Positions 13,614-50,655 of a DNA stretch of 50,883 nucleotides are shown piece by piece. The stretch lies in the NCBI GenBank assembly GCA_026395915.1, contig JAPLXU010000017.1, positions 3,023-53,905 on the forward strand. Reading direction: 5' to 3'. Position 1 is the stretch's first letter. The number at the start of each line of letters is the position of its first letter. The position numbers and the translations under genes are program-made. The DNA comes from Candidatus Nomurabacteria bacterium (GTDB taxonomy: Bacteria > Patescibacteriota > Minisyncoccia > Phycocordibacterales > UBA9973). Under the pieces are notes generated by a model. The model saw only the letters and a program-made list of their open reading frames with translations, was not told the DNA's origin and did no database searches.

Positions 13614-14891
13614 ATGAAAAACTTAAAGAAAAAAATTAAAACGATTTACTGGTGGGCTTTATCTTTTGTTGCTCGTTATTATTATGGAAATCCGTCTAGG
13701 AAATTAAAAGTCGTAGGAGTTACTGGCACGAGCGGGAAGACCACGACAGCCACGTTGCTTTATAAGATCTCGACCGAGCTTGGTTACAAAACCGGATTGA
13801 TAGGCACTGTGGAAAATATCATTGTAAAAGAAGAAGAAGTAGCAAAGATGACCACTCCGGATTCTTTGACTCTCACAAAACTTTTTAATAAGATGAGCAA
13901 CGCAGGTTGCGAGTATGTTTTTATGGAAGTGTCTTCCCACGCCATAGATCAAAACCGTGTTCGAGGTATAAATTTTGTCGGCGGAGTTTTCACCAACTTA
14001 TCTCAAGATCATTTTGATTATCACAAAAATTTTGAGAATTATTTTCAAGCAAAGAAAAAATTTTTCAAGATGCTGTCAAAAAAAGCTTTTGCTCTCTCGA
14101 ATATCGATGACAAATACGGTGAAAAAATGCTCGAAGGTATAAAAGCTAGAAAGTTTTCTTATGGATTTGAAAAGCCAGAGGTCAGACCTATGGGAATCTC
14201 CCATAGGTCTGACCTCTGGGCAGATTTTCATGGAGAAATAAAAAAAATGGATTTCGATGGTCTAGAAATGACTTTTAACGATATCACCATCAAGACCAAA
14301 CTTTTGGGAAAGTTTAACGCATATAATTTGCTCGCGATTTGGAGCGCATGTTCGCTTCTCGGTTTTGATATGGAAAAAGTAAACACGATTTTGGAAAACA
14401 TCGAGCCACCGCGAGGAAGGTTTGAACATTTTACTTCGAAAAGCGGAGTGCTTGTGATAGTGGATTATGCTCACAAACCGGACGCTCTCGAAAAAATATT
14501 TTCAGCAATCAAAGAAGTAATCGGAGGAAAAGGAAAATTAATTTCTGTTTTCGGTTGCGGTGGCGATCGAGACCCGTTCAAGCGTCCCATTATGGGAAAA
14601 ATCGGGGCTGTCAATTCCGATATCGCAATTTTCACTTCAGACAATCCGCGAAGCGAAAATCCGGAGAAAATTATCGAGCAAATGAAAACCAGTCTATCCG
14701 TCGATGATCTTAAAAAAATAAAAACCATTCCAAACAGACGCGAAGCTATTTTGGAAGCGATTAAACTAGTGCAAAAAGGAGATATAATTCTTTGCGCTGG
14801 TAAGGGTCACGAAGATTATCAGGAAATCAAAGGCGTGAAGCATCACTTTGACGATATGGAAGAATTCAAAAAAGCTTATGCGGAATTATAA
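13614..14891 (+). CDS. murE: UDP-MurNAc-tripeptide synthetase MurE
   Basis: VTGTSGKTT, MTTPD, MEVSSHA, VDYAHKPD, FGCGGDRD, SDNPRSE (DNPR suggests meso-DAP), AGKGHE. Confidence 0.97.
   Translation: MKNLKKKIKTIYWWALSFVARYYYGNPSRKLKVVGVTGTSGKTTTATLLYKISTELGYKTGLIGTVENIIVKEEEVAKMTTPDSLTLTKLFNKMSNAGCEYVFMEVSSHAIDQNRVRGINFVGGVFTNLSQDHFDYHKNFENYFQAKKKFFKMLSKKAFALSNIDDKYGEKMLEGIKARKFSYGFEKPEVRPMGISHRSDLWADFHGEIKKMDFDGLEMTFNDITIKTKLLGKFNAYNLLAIWSACSLLGFDMEKVNTILENIEPPRGRFEHFTSKSGVLVIVDYAHKPDALEKIFSAIKEVIGGKGKLISVFGCGGDRDPFKRPIMGKIGAVNSDIAIFTSDNPRSENPEKIIEQMKTSLSVDDLKKIKTIPNRREAILEAIKLVQKGDIILCAGKGHEDYQEIKGVKHHFDDMEEFKKAYAEL
14175..14219. repeat. 45-bp palindrome in frame in murE (21-bp arms)
   Basis: ccagaggtcagacctatggga-atc-tcccataggtctgacctctgg. 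Confidence 0.92.
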
Positions 14892-16216: not shown

Positions 16217-16693
16217 ATGAATTTTAGACAGAAAATTAAAAAAACTTTTTATTTTTTCCGAAATCCTATTTATAAATTATATTGTTTTATATTTAGGCCA
16301 AAATCATTAGGAGTAAAAACAGTGGTTGAAAATAATGACGGGAAAATTCTTATGGTTCGAATTAGTTATGCTCACAGAAAATGGACCTTTCCGGGTGGTG
16401 GCGTAAAACGCAAAGAATCATTTGAGGAAGCAGCAATAAGAGAGCTAGAAGAAGAAGTTGGAATAAAAACGCAGCACTTAATTGAGATGGGTGGATATAT
16501 CTCAGATAGAAATTTTAAGAAAAATATTGTAAAATGCTTTTACCTTAAAGTAGATTCTTCTTTTGTGAGGATTGATAATTTTGAAATTTCTGAATTAATT
16601 TGGTGCAATCCAGGAGAACTTCCAGAAGGTAATTCTTTTTCTGTGCCTGAGATATTGGAGATCTATAAAAATTTTAAATCAAAAACAATATGA
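16217..16693 (+). CDS. NUDIX hydrolase
   Basis: Nudix box GGGVKRKESFEEAAIRELEEEVG. Confidence 0.92.
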   Translation: MNFRQKIKKTFYFFRNPIYKLYCFIFRPKSLGVKTVVENNDGKILMVRISYAHRKWTFPGGGVKRKESFEEAAIRELEEEVGIKTQHLIEMGGYISDRNFKKNIVKCFYLKVDSSFVRIDNFEISELIWCNPGELPEGNSFSVPEILEIYKNFKSKTI

Positions 16694-17979
16694 ATATAGA
16701 CTTATTAAAAATTAACACTTCGAAAATACTCAGTGCAAGAAAAATATTTTTCATCGGTATTGGCGGGATTGGGATTTCTGCTTTGGCAAAGATGGCTCTT
16801 TCGCGCGGGATGGAAGTTTCTGGCGTAAACGACGAAGAAGGGAAGACCATAGACTCGCTCAAAGAACTCGGCGTGAGTGTGATAATGTCAAAGACCGTCT
16901 TTGACATACCGGAGGCGGATTTATATGTTTACAGCGATGCGTGGCTTTATCGCGGACCGGAAATTTTAGAAAAAGCAAAAAAAACTGGCAAACCGGTTAT
17001 GAGTTATTTCGAGGCGTTGGGCATTTTCGCAAAGGAGTACAAAGTCATAGCGATTGCTGGCACTCACGGAAAGACGACAACGACAGCAATGGTGGCAGAA
17101 GTTTTAATAGACGCAGGATTAGATCCGACGGTCATAGTTGGTTCGTTCGTTAAAAAATTTGATTCCAATTTTCGCGCTGGAAAAGGAGAATATCTGGTAG
17201 TTGAGGCAGACGAATATAATCGGCATTTTTTAAATTTTCATCCGTTTATTGCAGTCGTGACAAACATCGAAGCAGATCATTTGGATTGTTATAAAGACCT
17301 GGCGGACATAAAAGATGCATTTAATAAATTTATTTCACAAAGCGAGAATAAAGTTTTGGACTATACGAAATATTTGGATAAGGTGCCGAAATTATCAGTA
17401 CCCGGTGAGCACAACAGGATGAATGCGGTGGCTACGCTCGCTGTGGCAGACATTTTGAATATCAACGAAGAAGTCGCTCAAAAATCCTTAGCAGAATTTT
17501 CTGGCACTTGGCGCCGGCTTGAGAAAAAAGGAAAAACGAAAGAGGGGACTATTGTCTATGACGATTATGCTCATCATCCGACGGAAATCAAGGCGAGCTT
17601 GCAAGCTCTCCGAGAACTTTACTCGAAAGGTGGATATAATATTACTGTTTTATTCCAACCGCATCTTTACAGCCGTACGAAGGCTTTGTTTAATGATTTT
17701 GTGACCTGTTTTGATGATGCTGACAATGTCTTGCTCTTGCCGATATATTTTGCGCGTGAAGCTAAGGACGAGAGTGTTTCAAGTAAAAAATTAGCCGATG
17801 CAATACGCATGCACCGTGGAGAGGCAGTCGCTTTTGATAGTTTTACTGAAGCAGAAGAATGGGTTTCAAAGATGAAACTTGGCCCAAAAGACGTCTTTGT
17901 AACAATGGGGGCTGGTGAAGCCTACAAAGTTGCCGATAAGGTTTTCGGGGCTAAAAATTTGACTTTTGACTCAAAATAG
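16690..17979 (+). CDS. murC: UDP-MurNAc--L-Ala ligase MurC
   Basis: IGIGGIGIS, IAGTHGKTTTT, VEADE, DDYAHHPTEI, FQPHLYSRT, MGAG. Confidence 0.97.
   Translation: MNIDLLKINTSKILSARKIFFIGIGGIGISALAKMALSRGMEVSGVNDEEGKTIDSLKELGVSVIMSKTVFDIPEADLYVYSDAWLYRGPEILEKAKKTGKPVMSYFEALGIFAKEYKVIAIAGTHGKTTTTAMVAEVLIDAGLDPTVIVGSFVKKFDSNFRAGKGEYLVVEADEYNRHFLNFHPFIAVVTNIEADHLDCYKDLADIKDAFNKFISQSENKVLDYTKYLDKVPKLSVPGEHNRMNAVATLAVADILNINEEVAQKSLAEFSGTWRRLEKKGKTKEGTIVYDDYAHHPTEIKASLQALRELYSKGGYNITVLFQPHLYSRTKALFNDFVTCFDDADNVLLLPIYFAREAKDESVSSKKLADAIRMHRGEAVAFDSFTEAEEWVSKMKLGPKDVFVTMGAGEAYKVADKVFGAKNLTFDSK
16885..16907. repeat. REP-like palindrome family C in frame in murC
   Basis: atgtcaaaga-ccg-tctttgacat; 22 of 22 nt identical to the RAYT-flanking copy at 25337-25358. 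Confidence 0.88.
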
Positions 17980-18085
17980 TATAGTATATAGATAACCTTG
18001 TTTTTAGGCTTCCAAGCTTAATAAATAAGGCTTTTTTAGTTTATTGGCGGTTTTAGACTAGAAATATACAGTTACTGAATTGGCA

Positions 18086-18124
18086 CCTGCCCGCTTTCGC
18101 CTGAGCGAAGCGATGGCGGGCGGG
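18086..18124 (+). repeat. Family A2 element, 39 bp, in a 5' leader
   Basis: cctgcccgctttcgcctgagcgaagcgatggcgggcggg. Confidence 0.9.
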
Positions 18125-18142
18125 GAGCAAAACCGCTTTAAT

Positions 18143-18775
18143 ATGGAAAATAGAAAATGGGTGCGATTTGTGGAGTCTTTCGTGGTTTTACCAATTTTAA
18201 CAATATCATCAGTGCCTGTGGGGCCTATCTCACAAGCCGTAGTAGGTGTTGTTAATACTCCATCAATTGTGTCTTTTCAAAAACAAAATAATGAAGCTTC
18301 TGGTTCTTTGGCTGTTAATGATGCCACGGACGAGAAGCTAGAAGCGGAGAAAATCAAAGCGGAAGCTATTGATAGTTATTTCAAGACGCATGGTATGCCA
18401 TTAGAAGGTATGGGCATGAAGATGGTTTTGGAAGCTGAAAAGAACGAAATTGATTGGCGCCTTTTGCCTGCGATATCTGTCAGGGAATCGACGGGTGGTC
18501 AGAATGATTGCAAAAAAGTTAATTTTAACGCTTTTGGTTGGGGTTCATGCAAAATCGGTTTTAAATCAACAGAAGAAGCTATTGAAGTTGTGGCTAAAAA
18601 TTTGGGAGGCAATAATCCAAAAACTGAACATTATTATGACAACAAAACTACAAAGCAAATCTTGCGCGCCTATAATCCACCTTCCGTCGTGTCTCGTTAT
18701 GCCGAGCAGGTGATGAACATCATGGATACTATTGGTAAAGCGGACGAGGTAGTAATTCCTAATACAACCACATAA
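18143..18775 (+). CDS. Membrane-anchored or secreted lysozyme/glucosaminidase-like protein
   Basis: N-terminal hydrophobic segment; LLPAISVRESTGG (putative catalytic Glu), NAFGWG, YNPP..YAEQV. Confidence 0.7.
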   Translation: MENRKWVRFVESFVVLPILTISSVPVGPISQAVVGVVNTPSIVSFQKQNNEASGSLAVNDATDEKLEAEKIKAEAIDSYFKTHGMPLEGMGMKMVLEAEKNEIDWRLLPAISVRESTGGQNDCKKVNFNAFGWGSCKIGFKSTEEAIEVVAKNLGGNNPKTEHYYDNKTTKQILRAYNPPSVVSRYAEQVMNIMDTIGKADEVVIPNTTT

Positions 18776-18815
18776 AAAACGAAAGCAAGGCCTCCGTTTT
18801 TTATGCTGAATACGT

Positions 18816-19673
18816 TTATTTGTCGGTGATGATACTTAATATTATTATTGAAACAAAGGCGACAAGAAATCCAAAAATTTGATGGCGTTTCAATTTTTCT
18901 TTGTTGAAAACTAAACCAAGAAAACTGGCGAAAGCGATATATCCTTCGCTGATACTTGTTGCAATGGCAATCGGAATATAGAGTGTTGCAAAAGAAAACA
19001 TTACCCAGGCTAAATTATCAAAAAAACTCACATTAAAAATCAATCTTTTGTTTTCTTTAAAATCTTTTGCGATCTCTTTTAATCTGGAATTTGAAGCGAG
19101 ATAAACTAAGGCGATAACAGCAATAAAAACGCTAGTAAACCAGTTTATCATCAAAGGACTGATCGTTCTTGAACCGAGCCCAAACATAAAATTAGCTATT
19201 CCCATGCATAGAGTTCCAAAGATGGCATACAATATTCCTTTTTCGAGTTTCATTCCTTTGAAATGGCTGAAAGATTTTGTCGACACAAGGAAGATGCCGA
19301 TCATAGATAAGCCAACCAAAAGAATTTGTAAAAAAGTTAATTTTTCTCTGATTATAAACGTGGACAAAAATATAACCACAATAATTTCAAAAGCATATAT
19401 TGGTTCCACGATGGAAATTTTACCTATTCGCAGAGCTTCAAAGTTGAGCAAGGCCGCGAATAATGTCGCGAGTCCTGCTATTAAGAGCAAGACAAGATAG
19501 TTGCTGAAAGAACTTGCTAATTCGTTATAGACAAAGGGGAACAAAACAATTGCGGCGAATGCGGTTATATAAAATAAAGCAATCCAATCGCCGAATTTTC
19601 TAGCGCTTTTCTGAATAAGAAAATCGCCGAGACCCCAAGAAAATAATGCAGTTAATGCAAAAAGAATACCCAT
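18816..19673 (-). CDS. EamA/DMT family transporter
   Basis: About 10 TM, two EamA repeats (WGLGDF, GKISIVEPI, REKLT, KEKL). Confidence 0.9.
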   Translation of the reverse strand: MGILFALTALFSWGLGDFLIQKSARKFGDWIALFYITAFAAIVLFPFVYNELASSFSNYLVLLLIAGLATLFAALLNFEALRIGKISIVEPIYAFEIIVVIFLSTFIIREKLTFLQILLVGLSMIGIFLVSTKSFSHFKGMKLEKGILYAIFGTLCMGIANFMFGLGSRTISPLMINWFTSVFIAVIALVYLASNSRLKEIAKDFKENKRLIFNVSFFDNLAWVMFSFATLYIPIAIATSISEGYIAFASFLGLVFNKEKLKRHQIFGFLVAFVSIIILSIITDK

Positions 19674-19740
19674 GATTAGAAGTTTATCATGTTAAAACCA
19701 AAAAATCCCGCACTTGATTGGAATTCGTTTTTTTTTGATC

Positions 19741-19770
19741 TTGACTTTACCTGTCGGGGGGGGGTAGACT
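19741..19770 (+). promoter_or_regulatory. Putative sigma70 promoter with a G9 tract in the spacer
   Basis: TTGACT-18 nt (ttacctgtcGGGGGGGGG)-TAGACT upstream of the 19799 ORF. Confidence 0.65.
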
Positions 19771-19798
19771 TAGGGTATTATTATTTAATAAAAAAATT

Positions 19799-20161
19799 AT
19801 GAATTTTGATCAACCGCCAGTTGCAATAAAACAAGAGAAAGGGTTGGATATGAAAAAGATGGGTGCACTTGTTCAATTATCAGGTACTATCAGATTAGAG
19901 GATGGTGGAGAAATTCTTCCTGGTGCTTCTGAAGAAGATAAAAAAACATTTGGAAGTAATAATGGTTTTATTTCTTTTGTAACCGAAGGCGGAGTTCAGT
20001 ATGTTACCAAATATTCTTCTAAAAAGGCATTAGATCTTGAAATCGCTGGTTATAGACGAGCAGGTCTAGGTGTGCCATTCTCCAATGGAGAGAAACCCTC
20101 AGGTAGTAGTCAATTTATTTATAATCAATGGGAAAGAATGGTGCACGAAAAAGCTGACTAG
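19799..20161 (+). CDS. Hypothetical protein
   Basis: 120-aa ORF with its own promoter and a downstream terminator. Confidence 0.75.
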   Translation: MNFDQPPVAIKQEKGLDMKKMGALVQLSGTIRLEDGGEILPGASEEDKKTFGSNNGFISFVTEGGVQYVTKYSSKKALDLEIAGYRRAGLGVPFSNGEKPSGSSQFIYNQWERMVHEKAD

Positions 20162-20217
20162 AAAAACTGCAATTTAAAAGCTACCTTTGAAACTAAATAG
20201 GATCGTTCTTACAAAAT

Positions 20218-20252
20218 AACAAAAAATCCCGCTCAGTGCGGGATTTTTTGTT
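20218..20252. terminator. Bidirectional intrinsic terminator
   Basis: aacaaaaaatcccgc-tcagt-gcgggattttttgtt between convergent genes. Confidence 0.85.
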
Positions 20253-20259
20253 ATTTTTT

Positions 20260-21354
20260 TTATTCCAGATAAATCAAAGTCATCTTCTGATCTTTTGGTT
20301 CGAAGAGGGTAATTTGAAAATTGTAATTCTTTCCAAGTTCCAGCTTCTCGCGCAATTTGGATTCAGAAGGGAAAGTGGAATTGTGAACAAGTCCCGCCAC
20401 GCCTTCCTTGATGGAAACTAGCGCGCCGTGCTTGTTGTATTTAATGACAACTCCTTTAATGATATCTCCCTTTTTCAATTTGCCTTCAAATTCTTTCCAA
20501 GGATTTTCCTTGAGAGCTTTGATAGAGAGCGAAATCTTGCCGTCTTTTATTTCGATAACTCTGGCGCGGATTTTATCTCCGATTTTGAACATCGAGCGAG
20601 GATTTTCTACAAGTCCCCAATCGAGTTCGGAAATGTGCACCAGGCCTTCGAGACCGTCTTCCAATTTGATAAACACTCCGAAATCAACCAATCCAGCAAC
20701 TGTGCAATCCAAATCTTCTCCGACATGATACTTACTCAAAATCTCTTTCTTCTCTTCGGGATTATTGTCTTTCTCAGAGAAGATCAATTTGCCTTCTTTT
20801 GGCAAAGTCGAAATAATCATCACGGAAATTTGCTGTCCGACAAATTTTTTAAGCTCTTTTAAAATTTTATCCTTATCAGAATCCAACACGCGAGGGTAGT
20901 GGTCAGCTTTGAGTTGGGACGCAGGCAAGAAACCTTGTATGCCTTGCCATTCCAAAATCAACCCTCCTTTGTTCGCGTCTTTTATTTCCAAACTCATTAC
21001 TGTCTTTTCTTTTATTGCTTTCTCAGCCTCACTCCAAATAAGCGCTTGCTTGGCTTCTTTGAGCGAAAGTTCTATATAACCATCTTCGTTTTCTTTTTCA
21101 ACAACTTTTGCCTTGATGATATCGCCGGGACTTATTTTTTTTATAATGTCCTTAGCATTGATAAATTCGCGACCGTAAATAATACCTGCTCCGTATGGCG
21201 CGAGGTCGACATAAACTGACGATTTTTCGACGCTAATAACTGCGCCTTCCACGAGGGCGTCAACTTCTGGCTTATTCACACTACGAGACATGATGGAACT
21301 TAAGATCGGATTTTCATCCACAACTATTACTGGTACTTCCTTTTTTTTAATCAT
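20260..21354 (-). CDS. rpsA: 30S ribosomal protein S1 (short form, about 4 S1 domains)
   Basis: S1 repeats: IELSLK, NKGGL..QGFLPASQL, DFGVFIKL..EGLVHISEL, KISLSIK; start may be 21384. Confidence 0.92.
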   Translation of the reverse strand: MIKKKEVPVIVVDENPILSSIMSRSVNKPEVDALVEGAVISVEKSSVYVDLAPYGAGIIYGREFINAKDIIKKISPGDIIKAKVVEKENEDGYIELSLKEAKQALIWSEAEKAIKEKTVMSLEIKDANKGGLILEWQGIQGFLPASQLKADHYPRVLDSDKDKILKELKKFVGQQISVMIISTLPKEGKLIFSEKDNNPEEKKEILSKYHVGEDLDCTVAGLVDFGVFIKLEDGLEGLVHISELDWGLVENPRSMFKIGDKIRARVIEIKDGKISLSIKALKENPWKEFEGKLKKGDIIKGVVIKYNKHGALVSIKEGVAGLVHNSTFPSESKLREKLELGKNYNFQITLFEPKDQKMTLIYLE

Positions 21355-21498
21355 AAATGTTTCTAAAATTAAAACATCCGCCATAAAGCGGATATAAGGC
21401 TTAGGTTTTCCGACATAAGGTCGGAAGGTTACCCTAAATCCATGCTTTTAATAAATATTCAACTGAAGTGATATTACTATGAAACGAGACAAAATGCA

Positions 21499-21550
21499 AC
21501 CTCACTTTTTTGTCTCTCTCCAATACTCTAGAGAGGAGTTGGGATGAGGT
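21499..21550. repeat. Degenerate family B element, intergenic
   Basis: acctcac..ctctctcc..tagagagg..gggatgaggt. Confidence 0.55.
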
Positions 21551-21586
21551 GATTTTGAATTAAAAATGTGCTATTATATACATATA

Positions 21587-22231
21587 ATGATAATAACATA
21601 TTTCGGCAAACAATTTTTCAAGATTCAGCAAGGAGAGACGGTTCTCTCTTTTAATCCTGTCAGCAAAAGCTCAAAATCTGGGATAAGCGCTCACTTTGGC
21701 GCGGACATCGCTTTGGTCACTACAAATCATCCCGATTATAATGGCGTGGAGCAACTCTCTCATGGAGACAGAGAACCTTTCGTCATCAATGGTCCGGGAG
21801 ATTATGAAATAAAAGAAATTTTTATCAAAGGTGTTTTGTCGGATGCTCTTATCGGAGACAAAAAACACATCAACACCATTTACATATTTTCAATAGACAA
21901 TATCAATATTGTGTTCCTCGGAGCGCTTTCGAGTTCTGAAATTTCAAAAGAAGCGCTCGAAGCGATAAATAGTCCAGATATTCTTTTTGTTCCGGTTGGC
22001 GGAAAAGGTTCTGCAAACGGCGCGAGTTTGCTTGATGCGAAATCCGCCGCCAAACTAGCATCTTCTTTCGAGCCGAAAATGATCATACCGATGGACTACG
22101 ACGATGCGTCTCTCAAAGCGTTTTTGAAAGAAACTGGAGAGGAAAAAGCCGAAGTGGTAGATAAATTGACTTTGAAATTAAAAGATTTAGAAGGCAAGGA
22201 AGGGGAGGTTGTGGTTTTAAAAGTAACGTAG
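21587..22231 (+). CDS. MBL-fold metallo-hydrolase-like protein (Lactamase_B_3 type)
   Basis: MIITYFG, ADIALVT.NHPDYN, GPGDYEI, DILFVPVGG, EPKMIIPM. Confidence 0.85.
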   Translation: MIITYFGKQFFKIQQGETVLSFNPVSKSSKSGISAHFGADIALVTTNHPDYNGVEQLSHGDREPFVINGPGDYEIKEIFIKGVLSDALIGDKKHINTIYIFSIDNINIVFLGALSSSEISKEALEAINSPDILFVPVGGKGSANGASLLDAKSAAKLASSFEPKMIIPMDYDDASLKAFLKETGEEKAEVVDKLTLKLKDLEGKEGEVVVLKVT

Positions 22232-22257
22232 CAGATAGCGCCTAAAGCCCTATCTGC
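22231..22257. repeat. REP-like palindrome family D
   Basis: gcagatagcgcctaaagccctatctgc, near-identical to the reverse complement of 50629-50655. Confidence 0.85.
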
Positions 22258-22264
22258 AAAATTT

Positions 22265-22498
22265 ATGAAAAGAATCATTCATCATTTAAGAAAACAGCCG
22301 GAAAAAACGAGGAGACACATCTTGCATGTTACTACTGTTGTATTCGGCATTGTTTTAGTTTTGCTTTGGATTTATTCTTTGGGGACGAATCTGACCAGTC
22401 CCGATACGCAAGCGAAAGCGAAAAATGATCTCGAAACTTTTTCCACATTAAAGGCCAATTTAATCGGCGGATATCAAAGCATTTCAGGGTCGCAGTAA
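22265..22498 (+). CDS. Small single-TM hypothetical protein
   Basis: LRKQPEKTRRHIL followed by a TM helix. Confidence 0.75.
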   Translation: MKRIIHHLRKQPEKTRRHILHVTTVVFGIVLVLLWIYSLGTNLTSPDTQAKAKNDLETFSTLKANLIGGYQSISGSQ

Positions 22499-22513
22499 TT
22501 TTAATAATTTTCC

Positions 22514-24979
22514 ATGAAAAAATCTTTAGAAATAAAAGAGGAGAGTGGCGGTATGGATAAAATCCTCGGAGTAGACGTAGTTGCGGAGATGAAGGAATCA
22601 TATTTGGCGTATGCCATGTCGGTTATTACTTCGCGAGCCTTACCGGATGTGCGAGATGGATTAAAGCCCGTTCATCGTCGAATTTTGTTTGCCATGAACG
22701 AAATGGGACTTACTTCTTCGGCACGTTTTCGTAAATCTGCTGCAGTTGTCGGAGATGTGCTTGGAAAATATCACCCGCATGGAGATGTTGCTGTTTATGA
22801 TTCTATGGTGGGTATGGCGCAGGAATTTTCTTATCGTTACCCTTTGATTTTGGGACAAGGAAACTTTGGTTCAATCGATGGAGATAGCGCGGCGGCAATG
22901 CGTTATACCGAAACAAAAATGTCTAAACTTTCTTCTGAACTTTTGCGCGACTTGGAAAAAGAAACAGTTGATTTTCGTCCGAACTATGACCAGACTCGAA
23001 AAGAACCGGTCGTTCTTCCTGCGGCTGTGCCGGCGTTACTTTTGAACGGTACTCTCGGTATTGCTGTCGGTATGGCAACGAATATTCCTCCGCACAATTT
23101 GGCGGAAGTGCTCGACGCCACAAAACACTTAATCGAAAATGAAGACGCAACGACGGAAGACTTGATGCAATTTATCAAAGGTCCGGATTTTCCTACCGGC
23201 GGTATTGCTTATGGATACAAGGATATGCTCCATGCTTATTCCGGAGGCCGTGGCGGAGTGGTGACGAGAGGCGAAGCGGAAATAGTAGAACAAAAAGACG
23301 GTAATTTTTCAATCATCATTACCTCGATTCCGTTTAGAGTAAATAAAGCAAATTTAATAATGTCTATCGCCGAGCTTGTGCAAGAAAAAAAGTTGGAAGG
23401 TATCAAAGGACTACGCGACGAGTCAACTAAAGATATTAGAGTTGTCATTGATTTGAAGCCCAGCGCGCATCCGGAAAAAGTTTTGAATTATATTTATAGA
23501 AACACCCAGCTCGAGTCGAACTTTAACTTTAACATAGTTGCTCTGGTGGACGGCGTACCGCAGACTCTTTCGCTTAAGTCCATTCTGGAACAATTTATTT
23601 TACACAGAAGGGAAGTTGTAAAACGCAGGTCGGCTTATGACTTGCGTCGAGCCGAAGAACGCGAACATATCTTGCTTGGTCTCAAGAAAGCCTTGGATAA
23701 AATAGATCGCGTGATAACTGTTATTCGCGGTTCGAAAGATACACAAGTTGCCAAAGTTAATTTGATGAAAGAATTCAAGTTCTCTGATTTGCAGGCGACG
23801 GCTATATTGGAAATGAAATTAGCAAGACTGGCTGGCCTCGAACGAAAAGCAGTGGAGAACGAATTGGAAGAAAAACAAAAATTCATCAAGGAAATGAAGG
23901 ATATTTTGGCAAATCCAAAAAGAATATTGAAAATTATAGGGGAAGAATTGGCTGAAATCCGCGCAAAATATTCTGATGAACGCCGAACAAAAATCGTCAA
24001 AGGCGGAGTCAAAGAAATTTCCGACGAAGATTTAGTGCCGGAAAAAGAAACGATGCTCGTCTTGACCGCTGGAGGATACGTCAAATGCACCGACCCGGGT
24101 GAATATCGCGCTCAAAAGCGAGGCGGAGTGGGCGTGATCGATCTTGAAACCAAAGAAGAAGATTTTGTAACAATGCTTGTCTCCGGTTCGACGCACAGTA
24201 ATCTGCTCTTCTTTACCAATTTGGGAAAAGTTTATCAGATGAAAATGTACGAAATCCCGGAAGCTCGCCGAGCTACTCGCGGGAAATCAATTATGAATTT
24301 CCTTTCCCTTGGAACGGAAGAAAAAGTCACTTCCATTTTAGCGATGCCAAAAGATATCGACAAGTCTCCGACATCACTCATGCTTGTCACAAAAGGTGGC
24401 ACAGCCAAAAAAATGTCTTCCGAAAGTTTCAAAGATGTGCGCCGAAGTGGCATCATTGCCATCCGTCTCGACAAAGACGATCAGCTTATTTCTGCGTTAA
24501 TTACAGAAAAAAACGATGAGGTCATGATCGCGACAGCTTTTGGTCAATCTATTAGATTCAAAGAATCTGATGTGAGAGAAATGGGCAGGACGGCAGGAGG
24601 CGTGCGTGGCATAAAGTTGAAAAAGAGCGACATGGTTATCAGTGTCGATGTTGTGTCTGGGAGAAGTGGAAAAAAGGAAGGCTCGTTCCTTACAATGAGT
24701 GCTAACGGCTTCGGCAAAAAAACTAATTTGAAAGAATACAAAGTCCAGAAACGAGGTGGGTCAGGCATAAAGACGGCAAAAGTCACTCCAAAAACAGGTT
24801 CGCTTATCGTTGCCAAAGTTTTGACAGGGGAGGAAGAAGAATTGATTGCAATGTCCAAAAAAGGCCAAGTCATCAGGACAGCTCTGAAAGATATTTCTTC
24901 GTTAGGTCGTCAGACACAAGGCGTGACCATAATGCGTTTGAGAGGAGGAGATGGCATAGCATCACTCGCCTGTATTTAA
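22514..24979 (+). CDS. gyrA: DNA gyrase subunit A
   Basis: [31 protein letters not shown], GyrA-box QKRGGVG, C-terminal beta-pinwheel repeats. Confidence 0.99.
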
Positions 24980-24986
24980 TTTTTTT

Positions 24987-25331
24987 ATGTTCAATTTTTT
25001 TAAAAAACAAAAAATACAGGATAAAGATCAGGCAGTATTAAATCAGCTTATTAAATATGGTTCTAATTTATCTAAATTGCATAGTATTGATTTTTTCCTT
25101 TATTTTTCCAACAAAGAAGCTGCAGAGAGGGGGAAAGTAATGATTCAGGAAAGGTTTGCAAATTCCTCAGTTTCTGTAAGTGATTCACAAAAACAAAAAT
25201 TTTTGTGTCTAGTTAATATTTCTATGGTTCCAAACCTTGAAACTATACAGAACGCCAGTACTCAATTTGAAGCCATTACTGCATCTCTTGGTGGAGAATA
25301 CGACGGATGGGAAACAGCAATTGAGAGATAG
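24987..25331 (+). CDS. RraB/DUF695-like protein
   Basis: LSKLHSIDFFLYF..GGEYDGWET. Confidence 0.8.
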   Translation: MFNFFKKQKIQDKDQAVLNQLIKYGSNLSKLHSIDFFLYFSNKEAAERGKVMIQERFANSSVSVSDSQKQKFLCLVNISMVPNLETIQNASTQFEAITASLGGEYDGWETAIER

Positions 25332-25336
25332 TGTAG

Positions 25337-25358
25337 TGTCAAAGACCGTCTTTGACAT
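25337..25358. repeat. REP-like palindrome family C overlapping the RAYT stop codon
   Basis: tgtcaaagaccgtctttgacat, preceded by GTAG (25333-25336). Confidence 0.88.
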
Positions 25359-25965
25359 CGTAAATTAATGTTTGTTTTTTAAAATTGTTAATGTCACCAA
25401 AAGTTCCAATTAATAATTCTTTATTTATTATTGGCAGATTCCTGTCAGAAGCATAGTCATTATAACTGCTCCACAAATATTCGGATGGGTGTTTTACGAT
25501 TTTATCTTTAACAGGGTTCATGTGAATGTAAGCTGATGTCCACATTAGTTGAGGATTATTTTCTATTAAAACAGCTTTAAAACAATCTTGAAAAGCATGT
25601 CCTACACGACCATACTTATTATTTATATATTTTGAATAACTTGAACAGACTCTTGAAATTAGTTTTGAAATTGATATATCGCCACACTGTTCAATTAAAA
25701 AGTGAAAATGATTAGGCATAAGGCAAAAAGCATTAATTTTGAATTTACTTTTTCCTTCAGATTTAATTCTTATCCTGGAATAAGGCATACTCAACAATTT
25801 CTCACCCCTCAATTCTTTCTGATCAAATCCTAAAGCTAAGGCAAGTCTAAATAGGAAAGCTTTATAATCTTGATCATCAAAAAATATTTTTTCTTTATTA
25901 TTACCTCTATTATAAATATGGGCAATTGATCCGGCATTAAATTTTTTGTAGTCTCTATTATTCAT
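25339..25965 (-). CDS. REP-associated tyrosine transposase (RAYT; Y1/HUH, IS200-like TnpA)
   Basis: HIYNRGNNKEKIF, FCLMPNHFHFL (HUH), YIHMNPV (catalytic Tyr), WSSY; flanked by palindromes. Confidence 0.92.
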   Translation of the reverse strand: MNNRDYKKFNAGSIAHIYNRGNNKEKIFFDDQDYKAFLFRLALALGFDQKELRGEKLLSMPYSRIRIKSEGKSKFKINAFCLMPNHFHFLIEQCGDISISKLISRVCSSYSKYINNKYGRVGHAFQDCFKAVLIENNPQLMWTSAYIHMNPVKDKIVKHPSEYLWSSYNDYASDRNLPIINKELLIGTFGDINNFKKQTLIYDVKDGL

Positions 25966-25974
25966 TGTTTTATT

Positions 25975-25997
25975 ATGTCAAAGTGTCTCTTTGACAT
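25975..25997. repeat. REP-like palindrome family C upstream of RAYT
   Basis: atgtcaaag-tgtct-ctttgacat. Confidence 0.88.
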
Positions 25998-34666: not shown

Positions 34667-36202
34667 TTATTTTTGCGCTATTGAAAATAATTCTATAATG
34701 TCGCCCGGCGCGATTTCTATTTTCGACTCGATCATCATGCCGAATTCTGATCCATCTTCGACGATGCCGGTTTTCGCTTTATTCTTTTCCAAGTTCACGA
34801 TTTTTCCGCGTCCGATTTCGAATTCTCTGCGCATAATTTTCACTGTTCCATTTAAGAGCATTTGTCCTTCAGTAACCTTACCGCCTATTATCTGGCGCTC
34901 TTTGGTTCGACTGAAAGCTCTGATGATTTTTGCGCGACCGGTCGTTTCTATCGTCTCGATTCTAGGTCTTCTGTTTTCCATTTGCTCTTCGAGCCACTCT
35001 TTCATTTTATAAATGACGTCGAAAAACGAAATCGTGATTTCTCTTTTTAGAGCAATTTCTGTCGCGTTCCTGTCCGCTTTTACATTAAATCCGATGATTA
35101 TCACATCTTTGCTGTCGGACATATTCTTTATATCTGATTCTGAAATTGTCCCTACTCCTTTTCCGATAATTTTGAACTCAGCATTATCTATTTCACCCTT
35201 GCTTTTTATTTTAGTTATTTCTTTTTCAATGGCTTCCAAGGATCCGGCAACATCTGCTTTGAGCAATATTGGGATTATTTTTTTCTCTGAGTTTTTCTCT
35301 GGATTTTTTGTTTTGGGAGCCGAGCTCCCAAAGTTTGGGAGCTCGGCTCCCAAAATCTTTGCATACTCTTCCGCGCCCTTTCTATTTTTAAAAGATTTAA
35401 ATTCTGATCCCAATTTCGGCATTTTATCGAAACCGCAAAGGCGAACAGGGGAGGAAGGTCGCGCGCTGTTTATCATTTCTCCTTTGAAATTTTGAATTAT
35501 GCGTGTGGAAGTCATAGCATCTCCGGCAACAACGAACATTTTTTTCTGAAGCTCTCCGTTTTTGATAATTAAAGTCGCCTGAATTCCACATTTTGAATCA
35601 AGGTTTGCTTCTATCACGAAACCTGAAGCGTTTTCTTCTGCGTTTCCGGTGAAGTTTTCCATTTCAGCTAAAATCAAAATGAGCGATAGGAGGTTGTCTA
35701 CACCAGCGCCGGTCTTTGCAGAAATTTCCACGCATGGAATCTTGCCTCCATAATTTTCCAGATAGATTTCGTTTTCCGCAAGTTCTTGTTTCGTCTTTTC
35801 GATATTTGCGTTTGGTTTATCTATTTTATTTATTGCGACGATGGAAGGCAATTTCATTTCGTTGATTGTTTTCCATGCCTCGATTGTTTGTGGCTTCACG
35901 CCATCTTCAGCTGAGACTATCAAAATAGCGATGTCAGCGATCAAAGCTCCACGTTCGCGCATTTTTGAAAAAGCTTCGTGTCCGGGTGTATCCAGAAAAG
36001 TAATTTTTCTTTCTTTTCCTTCTTCATCTTTATGTAAGACTTCGTAAGCAGAAATACATTGGGTGATACCTCCAGCTTCACACTCAGCCACATTTGTTTT
36101 TCGAATGTAATCTAAAAGCGTTGATTTTCCGTGATCAATGTGTCCCACGACCACTACGACTGGTGGTCTCGATATTGTTTTGTTATTTTTATTTTCTTGC
36201 AT
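34667..36202 (-). CDS. infB: Translation initiation factor IF-2 (short, lacks N-terminal domains)
   Basis: RPPVVVVVGHIDHGKSTLLD, EAGGITQ, FLDTPGHEAF, NKID, KADVAGSLEAI. Confidence 0.98.
   Translation of the reverse strand: MQENKNNKTISRPPVVVVVGHIDHGKSTLLDYIRKTNVAECEAGGITQCISAYEVLHKDEEGKERKITFLDTPGHEAFSKMRERGALIADIAILIVSAEDGVKPQTIEAWKTINEMKLPSIVAINKIDKPNANIEKTKQELAENEIYLENYGGKIPCVEISAKTGAGVDNLLSLILILAEMENFTGNAEENASGFVIEANLDSKCGIQATLIIKNGELQKKMFVVAGDAMTSTRIIQNFKGEMINSARPSSPVRLCGFDKMPKLGSEFKSFKNRKGAEEYAKILGAELPNFGSSAPKTKNPEKNSEKKIIPILLKADVAGSLEAIEKEITKIKSKGEIDNAEFKIIGKGVGTISESDIKNMSDSKDVIIIGFNVKADRNATEIALKREITISFFDVIYKMKEWLEEQMENRRPRIETIETTGRAKIIRAFSRTKERQIIGGKVTEGQMLLNGTVKIMRREFEIGRGKIVNLEKNKAKTGIVEDGSEFGMMIESKIEIAPGDIIELFSIAQK
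35311..35355. repeat. 45-bp palindrome in frame in infB (22-bp arms)
   Basis: ttttgggagccgagctcccaaa-g-tttgggagctcggctcccaaaa. Confidence 0.92.
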
Positions 36203-50628: not shown

Positions 50629-50655
50629 GCAGATAGCGCTTTAGGCGCTATCTGT
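50629..50655. repeat. REP-like palindrome family D upstream of a RAYT fragment
   Basis: gcagatagcgc-tttag-gcgctatctgt. Confidence 0.85.

Follow-up and report, generated by a model that had tools for sequence, protein, structure and literature searches.

A short palindrome bracketing a RAYT-type transposase gene recurs in frame in murC, leuS and ileS of a Candidatus Nomurabacteria genome

Classical repetitive extragenic palindromic (REP) elements are present in hundreds of copies per genome, and the enzymes of the IS200/IS605 insertion sequences have a Y1 HUH fold and recognize hairpins on single-stranded DNA. Genes for REP-associated tyrosine transposases (RAYT, also TnpA_REP) that are bracketed by REP or REPIN elements are termed REPtrons (Bertels and Rainey, 2011, PMC3116915; Di Nocera, 2013, PMC3733652), and the second of these accounts also covers genomes in which REPtrons comprise several RAYTs. 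REP units or dimers have been described within genes as well, where they are read in frame as part of known proteins, among them tRNA synthetases and DNA ligase, and presumably occupy flexible loops (Di Nocera, De Gregorio and Rocco, 2013, PMC3733652). A further survey describes REPs that keep the reading frame within the transposase gene itself (TnpA_REP subclass 2.4), and also "double-foot" REPs (Quentin, 2018, PMC6006769). Here, we describe a RAYT gene in a 50,883-nt stretch of DNA from Candidatus Nomurabacteria bacterium (contig JAPLXU010000017.1, positions 3,023 to 53,905; hereafter the window), which is bracketed by a palindrome that has an identical, in-frame copy in murC. We consider it probable that gene and palindrome form a vertically inherited REPtron, in which the palindrome serves as the cognate REP, and that its hairpin was copied into loops of large genes where it is tolerated.

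The locus resembles the described REPtrons in that its Y1 HUH protein can be aligned to the TnpA_REP structure 4ER8, that each genome has one orthologue with its own palindromic bracket, and that dispersed family copies, inverted doublets and several paralogues, each with its own repeat family, are found. It differs from them in its lineage, Patescibacteria or candidate phyla radiation (CPR), in its very low copy number, in units of 21–23 nt, in the lack of a conserved GT[AG]G foot, in dispersed copies that are mostly intragenic, and in a 3′ bracket that supplies the stop codon of the transposase gene. The intragenic REPs described previously are a minority of otherwise intergenic families with GTAG/CGTC tags (Di Nocera, 2013, PMC3733652); the host genes here are of a similar kind (leuS, ileS and murC, with ligA for another family), whereas all four non-flanking copies are intragenic and carry no tag, the murC copy is length-neutral, and variants recur at this loop in many lineages. 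As in subclass 2.4 and the double-foot REPs, the REP overlaps the transposase coding sequence without breaking it, and the two ends of the symmetrical palindrome carry matching feet (ATGT...ACAT). In that survey, however, subclass 2.4 has a median HUH-to-Tyr spacing of 88 residues, as opposed to ~58–60 here, and double-foot REPs have a GT[AG]G/C[TC]AC foot, which is not shared (Quentin, 2018, PMC6006769).

With IS200/IS605 elements the locus shares the Y1 HUH fold and the logic of single-stranded hairpin recognition, but the gene does not recur as a unit, and it is only the hairpin that is repeated. Rickettsia palindromic elements (RPEs), reportedly the subject of a study by Ogata et al. in 2000, are ~100–150 nt long and are not known to have a dedicated transposase. 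They too are palindromic repeats translated in frame in essential genes of a small, host-dependent genome, whereas the elements described here are 21–23 nt long with a cognate RAYT for each family, and hence fall outside the RPE definition; RPEs are also cited in the account of intragenic REPs (Di Nocera, 2013, PMC3733652). Our literature searches retrieved no paper joining RAYT or REP with CPR and none on in-frame palindromic insertion with CPR, and the main text of the TnpA_REP survey contains no CPR term (Quentin, 2018, PMC6006769). As intragenic REPs have already been published, the present case is a documented example in a new lineage and not a new kind of system; its unusual traits are very short units, very low copy number, the missing GTAG foot, mostly intragenic position, and length-neutral occupation of a recurrent loop.

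The transposase gene and its palindromic bracket

A search of the whole window for the 22-mer TGTCAAAGACCGTCTTTGACAT returned two exact matches, both on the + strand, at 16886–16907 and 25337–25358. The second of these is the 3′ bracket of the RAYT gene, which lies on the − strand (25339–25965), and both palindromes that the initial annotation had placed around this gene were found there. The 3′ bracket (25337–25358, + strand, tgtcaaagaccgtctttgacat) is identical to the murC copy, is directly preceded by GTAG, and begins 6 nt past the stop of a convergent RraB-like gene (24987–25331); within it lie the TGA stop of the RAYT gene, the last five codons and part of a sixth (VKDGL*). The 5′ bracket (25975–25997, + strand, atgtcaaagtgtctctttgacat), which can be written as ATGTCAAAG-TGTCT-CTTTGACAT, shares the stem, has a different loop, and ends 10 nt before the RAYT ATG. 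The intragenic copy in murC (16885–16907, + strand, ATGTCAAAGAC-C-GTCTTTGACAT) has a 10-bp stem when folded as single-stranded DNA (−8.4 kcal/mol, z −5.6); it had been annotated as starting at 16885, where an additional A extends the murC stem, while the exact repeat starts at 16886. The single-stranded folds of the three window copies range from −7.4 to −8.4 kcal/mol (z −4.7 to −5.6) and were equalled by none of 200 shuffles, and in length (21–23 nt) and single-strand fold the palindrome agrees with REP/REPIN units (20–40 nt). Similarity that arose by chance or convergence, the genome being AT-rich, would have the shortness of the element in its favour and nothing else. The exact 22-mer had no match in any of 100 dinucleotide-preserving shuffles of the window, the pattern TGTCAAAG-N5-CTTTGACA occurs three times against an expectation of 0.07, and a reversed-pattern control gave no match in 61 genomes; the shuffles and the control refute this explanation, the probability of which we consider negligible.

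The RAYT gene encodes 208 aa with a Pfam Y1_Tnp match of 42.4 bits (cut-off 23), and the protein is, by its sequence, a RAYT-type transposase whose activity is predicted. Its catalytic motifs are an HUH motif, H86-F-H88, and Tyr146 in AYIHMNPV, separated by ~58–60 residues; the closest solved structure is E. coli TnpA_REP (4ER8, E 0.003), in which H86-F-H88 and Y146 (AYIHMNPVK) are aligned with LPEHMH and DYIYINPVK. The NCBIfam IS200 model scores 16.6 bits (cut-off 55), far below the 63.2 bits of the RAYT model REP_Tyr_transpos. When 61 genomes of the genus were searched, 49 had some match and 15, the present one (G000) included, had an orthologue; the 14 other orthologues are 60–83% identical, and no genome has more than one match at ≥60% identity. 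In six genomes (G003, G006, G007, G008, G017 and G020) the orthologue and murC are on one contig, 5.6–9.2 kb apart, as here. The relatives belong to Candidatus Nomurabacteria, and more distant ones to Zambryskibacteria. The gene is a vertically inherited one, with one copy per family.

The bracket is conserved with the gene. A palindrome of the form (A)TGTCAARG-loop-CYTTGACA(T) lies 10–25 nt upstream of the start in all 15 RAYT loci of the genus, and the palindrome is also found at or just after the stop in 14 of them, L039 having the upstream copy only; in this comparison locus L038 is cut at its 5′ end. The 3′ bracket overlaps the RAYT stop by 15–17 nt in 10 of 14 genus orthologues. In a collection of 28 loci from named species (Nomurabacteria and Zambryskibacteria), which overlaps with the G-numbered genomes, the palindrome is present on at least one side in 25 and on both sides in 22, and the three most distant loci (≤49% identity) have other palindromes instead. 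It is the stem that is conserved, while the loop varies between genomes: the closest orthologues (L032, L033 and L096–L101) have brackets with the AGACA/TGTCT loop, and the loops of paired brackets are in inverted orientation in L034, L035, L040 and L043 and in direct orientation in L032 and L033. The GTAG that had been pointed out before the 3′ copy is indeed present, but it adjoins only one of the six copies in this genome, none of the 14 orthologous bracket pairs and one of 25 copies in relatives (L159), and GTAG as a defining tag of the family was rejected because it is absent from all 14 orthologous brackets. As separate observations, the upstream palindrome of six of the eight RAYT paralogues in the genome (see below) is followed by a TATAAT/TATACT-like stretch before the start codon, and TTGACA is contained in the arms of the TGTCAAAG family.

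Palindrome and transposase are also associated across genomes. In a scan of the 61 genus genomes for TGTCAARG-N3-7-CYTTGACA, with the reversed pattern as a control, the pattern was present in 34 genomes and the control in none. All 15 genomes with a RAYT orthologue have at least two family copies (104 copies in total), as opposed to 19 of the 46 genomes without a detected orthologue, which have 50 copies in total, the remaining 27 having none; these tallies include an unpublished genome, G076 (no orthologue, no copies), and are descriptive only, as related genomes are not independent. Copies within one genome are largely of one variant, namely that of its bracket. In G017, the ACSGT type is common to all eight copies, the bracket and the murC copy, and in G042, G006 and G020 most are of the GGGCATC type, like their brackets. 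A strict rule that dispersed copies have the variant of the bracket was nevertheless discarded, since it holds for murC in the present genome and for G017 and fails for leuS in G003 and ileS in G007.

Copies inside murC, leuS and ileS

The assembly comprises 812 kb on 20 contigs and contains six copies of the TGTCAARG family, the two brackets and four others. The initial annotation had made its case depend on the existence of further copies, and had proposed that coding and intergenic ones be counted: besides murC, copies are located at C7:61662 and, as compensated variants, at C7:61629 and C11:55034, so that all four non-flanking copies are intragenic, in murC, leuS (two) and ileS, host genes that were confirmed by Pfam, and all 15 orthologue-bearing genomes have 2–17 copies each. 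For 25 non-flanking copies in G017, G003 and G042, 18 are in frames of at least 240 aa, three in frames of 127–159 aa and four in frames below 90 aa; host frames shorter than ~180 aa are held to be uncertain. Inverted doublets resembling REPINs occur in leuS of the present genome (C7:61629–61682, with a 12-nt spacer) and in G003, G042, G050 and G006.

In murC (16690–17979, + strand; UDP-N-acetylmuramate-L-alanine ligase, 429 aa, with Pfam Mur_ligase, Mur_ligase_M and Mur_ligase_C), the reading frame runs ...GVSVIMSKTVFDIPEADL..., and the palindrome is in frame, as had been claimed; it encodes M66-S-K-T-V-F-D72 and supplies the first base of the codon for I73. In an AlphaFold model based on a 21-sequence alignment (mean predicted local distance difference test score 91.8; mean 93 for blocks 61–70 and 71–80), residues 66–72 lie between strands 63–66 and 78–81 of the N-terminal domain. 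The segment is not a conserved feature of MurC; its conservation in relatives that lack this RAYT is what the initial annotation had named as the outcome that would undo its reading. Among murC orthologues at 68–80% identity, REP-free loops (L005, L003, L009, L012 and L016), counted from the strand ...G-x-x-V/I to P-E-A-D, are 9 residues long and of the type I-F-Q-K-N-M-K-E-F; this AT-rich FQKNMKE type occurs in 5 of 18 orthologues compared, and at greater distance a GQxxE motif takes its place. The loop of the present MurC (I-M-S-K-T-V-F-D-I) also has 9 residues, as it does in G017, L180, L185 and L197, and the equal length with and without the REP implies that the element replaces the seven-residue loop and does not lengthen it. 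Longer loops occur in L007, L008 and L014. In a side observation, murC of G008, G005 and a metagenome contig (L007, L008 and L184) was found to have a longer, GC-rich insert at this loop that reads LPAGALVEAGA, LPAEALAKEGA or LPAEALAEAE and looks like a different type of repeat at the same hot spot.

The loop has been occupied in several lineages. Variants of the family are present at it in G017 (shifted by one codon), in G009 and in 7 of 20 anchored metagenome relatives, that is in nine other lineages, with six different centres among the seven metagenome variants, and other palindromes are found there in G003 and G001. In a MurC tree from which the loop columns had been removed, G017 is sister to the REP-free G021 with 98% support in the SH-like approximate likelihood ratio test (SH-aLRT), the tree being otherwise unresolved inside the 11-genome clade; this sisterhood requires at least two events or repeated losses at the loop. 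A single ancestral insertion into murC followed by simple inheritance is therefore unlikely, given the sisterhood and the one-codon shift. That the palindrome in murC of G017, the other genome in which murC copy and bracket are both readable, matches the bracket of its own genome supports, together with the conserved bracket and the further copies, the direct link between transposase and coding palindrome that had been proposed.

The ileS copy (C11:55034) reads WPN-MSRTVLDM-FGSKK, where the shortest orthologues have WPKAEKVN, a net gain of ~8 codons. The same place holds another variant of the family in G007 and G016, a decayed one in G002 and a different type of palindrome in G008 and G003. 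The stem of this REP is 17 bp long; on its right side, the outermost 7 bp are an inverted copy of the codons of the host gene to the left (CCGAACA...TGTTCGG), where TGGCCGAAA is likewise read in L129, an orthologue that has no REP. The host locus (L062, C11:51835–55569) encodes an isoleucyl-tRNA synthetase of 1244 aa with a His_Phos_1 domain at residues 562–747. In leuS, the site is a hypervariable linker of ~10 to 50 residues, and the 21-mer TGTCAAGGACCGTCCTTGACA is identical at the same position in the present genome and in G003, where the surrounding proteins are 65% identical. This locus (L061, C7:59249–62176) encodes 975 aa with a NUDIX domain (Pfam, residues 385–501) after the editing domain, and a second extra stretch (RTVLKEVSPRTVLK), absent from 29 aligned orthologues, is located near the ELWxxLGEK motif.

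These two genes and murC bear on the possibility that the copying is independent of a transposase, and proceeds by template switching or short-patch gene conversion between a REP and a loop that resembles it or holds an older REP, with the RAYT as a neighbour or beneficiary. The replacement of seven codons at equal length in murC, the extension of the ileS stem by an inverted copy of the left host codons, and the presence of different variants at the same codon position of the same loops in different genomes are all in line with such a process, and it is because plain insertion predicts neither the equal-length replacement nor the extended stem that we keep this explanation alive. It leaves unexplained, however, why each family in this genome has its own RAYT paralogue bracketed by it and why the association is 15 of 15 as opposed to 19 of 46; moreover, the net gain in ileS means that replacement is not general, and the MurC loops of more than 9 residues make insertion followed by trimming possible. 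Overall, we regard transposase-independent copying as unlikely.

A related proposal makes use of the same loops and retains the RAYT as one of two possible agents. In CPR genomes as compact as these, RAYT-linked REPs may be rewritable coding cassettes, with the REP in a loop being overwritten in place, at unchanged length, by the current variant of the genome, either through the RAYT or through hairpin-templated repair. We put this forward tentatively, as a possibility with the odds against it. If it were true, a domesticated transposase would drive the concerted evolution of seven-residue segments in essential enzymes, and the covariation of Lys with Phe and of Arg with Leu would be set by pairing in a DNA hairpin and not by protein contacts.

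This covariation follows from the stem. The variable stem position is complementary at all 104 distinct sites (75 A-T and 29 G-C, with no hybrids), so that the encoded peptides are always S-K-x-x-F-D or S-R-x-x-L-D. Of the three frames of the palindrome, one contains TGA, the frame that ends the RAYT gene. The open frames are not used equally: single copies within long open reading frames of relatives read S[KR]xx[FL]D in 11 cases and CQRxxLT in one, and all four non-flanking copies in the present genome read S[KR]xx[FL]D. The bias points to filtering by protein tolerance. The complementarity could also be taken as a sign that the palindrome serves the host as DNA or RNA, for instance by binding a protein, by forming a hairpin in the mRNA or as part of a promoter, in which case the copies would be selected sites and not selfish ones. 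The single-stranded folds, the TTGACA in each arm and the conservation of nucleotides beyond the need of the protein, as in the leuS 21-mer shared with G003, fit a function of this type. Yet the genes concerned are unrelated, the copies lie in variable loops and linkers and are missing in many orthologues, families whose stems have nothing in common with this one show the same behaviour, and Rfam at gathering thresholds matched only rRNA and tRNAs in the whole window and nothing at the palindromes. As conservation and complementarity are equally expected if a RAYT must recognize the hairpin, we consider a host function improbable.

Other palindrome families in the genome

Perfect hairpins with a stem of at least 8 bp and a loop of 3–8 nt number 585 in the assembly and 108–122 in shuffles, a fivefold excess, and the 216 maximal hairpins with stems of at least 9 bp are grouped in recurring families. 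By tblastn, eight RAYT paralogues were found in the genome, all of which have the HUH and Tyr motifs. Each is flanked on both sides by its own palindrome family, copies of which recur elsewhere in the genome. The seven matches other than the RAYT described above are 30–34% identical to it and have different flanks, and repetition of a whole element, as in IS200/IS605, was not encountered among them. Other families have members inside ligA, a purL-like gene, infB and a Pif1 helicase gene. Crude, greedily called open reading frames cover 91.5% of the genome.

Several of these palindromes lie within the window. In infB (IF-2; 34667–36202, − strand), a 45-nt perfect palindrome at 35311–35355 is made up of two TTTGGGAGC-NNN-GCTCCCAAA units and is in frame as LGAELPNFGSSAPK; the unit is also found in the Pif1 helicase gene and two other open reading frames, and no RAYT flanked by it was seen in this assembly. 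A second 45-nt perfect palindrome, CCAGAGGTCAGACCTATGGGA-ATC-TCCCATAGGTCTGACCTCTGG at 14175–14219, is in frame (PEVRPMGISHRSDLW) in a 425-aa open reading frame (13614–14891, + strand) upstream of murD. The CCCCTCTCCTTATCAAGGAGAGGGG palindrome at 700–724 lies within the 16S rRNA gene (16S match 1–1135), which is ~76 nt longer than the span of the Rfam model; it belongs to the commonest hairpin type of the genome, with 59 matches to a loose pattern, 36 of them in the crude open reading frames. Finally, 50630–50654 is an intergenic copy of CAGATAGCGCTTTAGGCGCTATCTG, which also brackets the RAYT paralogue at C6:299–658 and is in frame in the purL-like gene at C3:21615.

How the hairpin may have spread, and what follows

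The established behaviour of TnpA_REP and IS200/IS605 enzymes suggests that the RAYT does the copying, and its role as mobilizing enzyme, the direction of copying and the chemistry of insertion are stated here by analogy with them. The RAYT would recognize the hairpin formed on single-stranded DNA, and would cut and rejoin the strand beside it by means of its catalytic tyrosine, whereby REP units could be copied or re-set elsewhere in the chromosome. In a 0.8-Mb genome that is ~91% covered by open reading frames, the copies that persist would largely be those that keep the reading frame and fall where a large protein tolerates them, in a loop or linker; the murC copy, which connects two strands of the N-terminal domain, would be one of these.

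Several observations weigh against the view that the palindrome is the REP of this RAYT and was inserted by it. The NCBIfam REP_Tyr_transpos score of 63.2 bits is under the equivalog cut-off of 80. The palindrome family lacks a conserved canonical 5′ GT[AG]G foot (or CGTC), its copy number (6 here and 2–17 in the 15 orthologue-bearing genomes) is well short of that of high-copy REPs, and its location is not extragenic. Family copies occur in the 19 genomes in which no orthologue was detected, with 11 in G015, and the variants in leuS of G003 and ileS of G007 are unlike the brackets of their own genomes. The length-neutral occupation of the MurC loop is not predicted by simple insertion. Lastly, four sequencing runs of the same strain, available as contigs only, had the REP in place and showed no polymorphism between filled and empty sites, with no inserted or missing letters at the three REPs; a metagenome scan likewise recovered no near-identical strain (best protein identity 90%) and no empty murC site.

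Through the palindrome, a specific transposase gene is tied to specific codons of essential proteins in CPR/Patescibacteria, and such repeats are seen to persist within genes where intergenic space has all but disappeared. With eight enzyme–hairpin pairs in 0.8 Mb, the genome may serve as a compact test bed for how a RAYT selects its hairpin and moves it, a process of which little is understood so far, and, as S-K-x-x-F-D and S-R-x-x-L-D are always matched pairs, for how a hairpin constraint at the DNA level acts on a protein. For annotation, the finding accounts for a class of odd, GC-richer and hypervariable loops in the housekeeping proteins of CPR bacteria.

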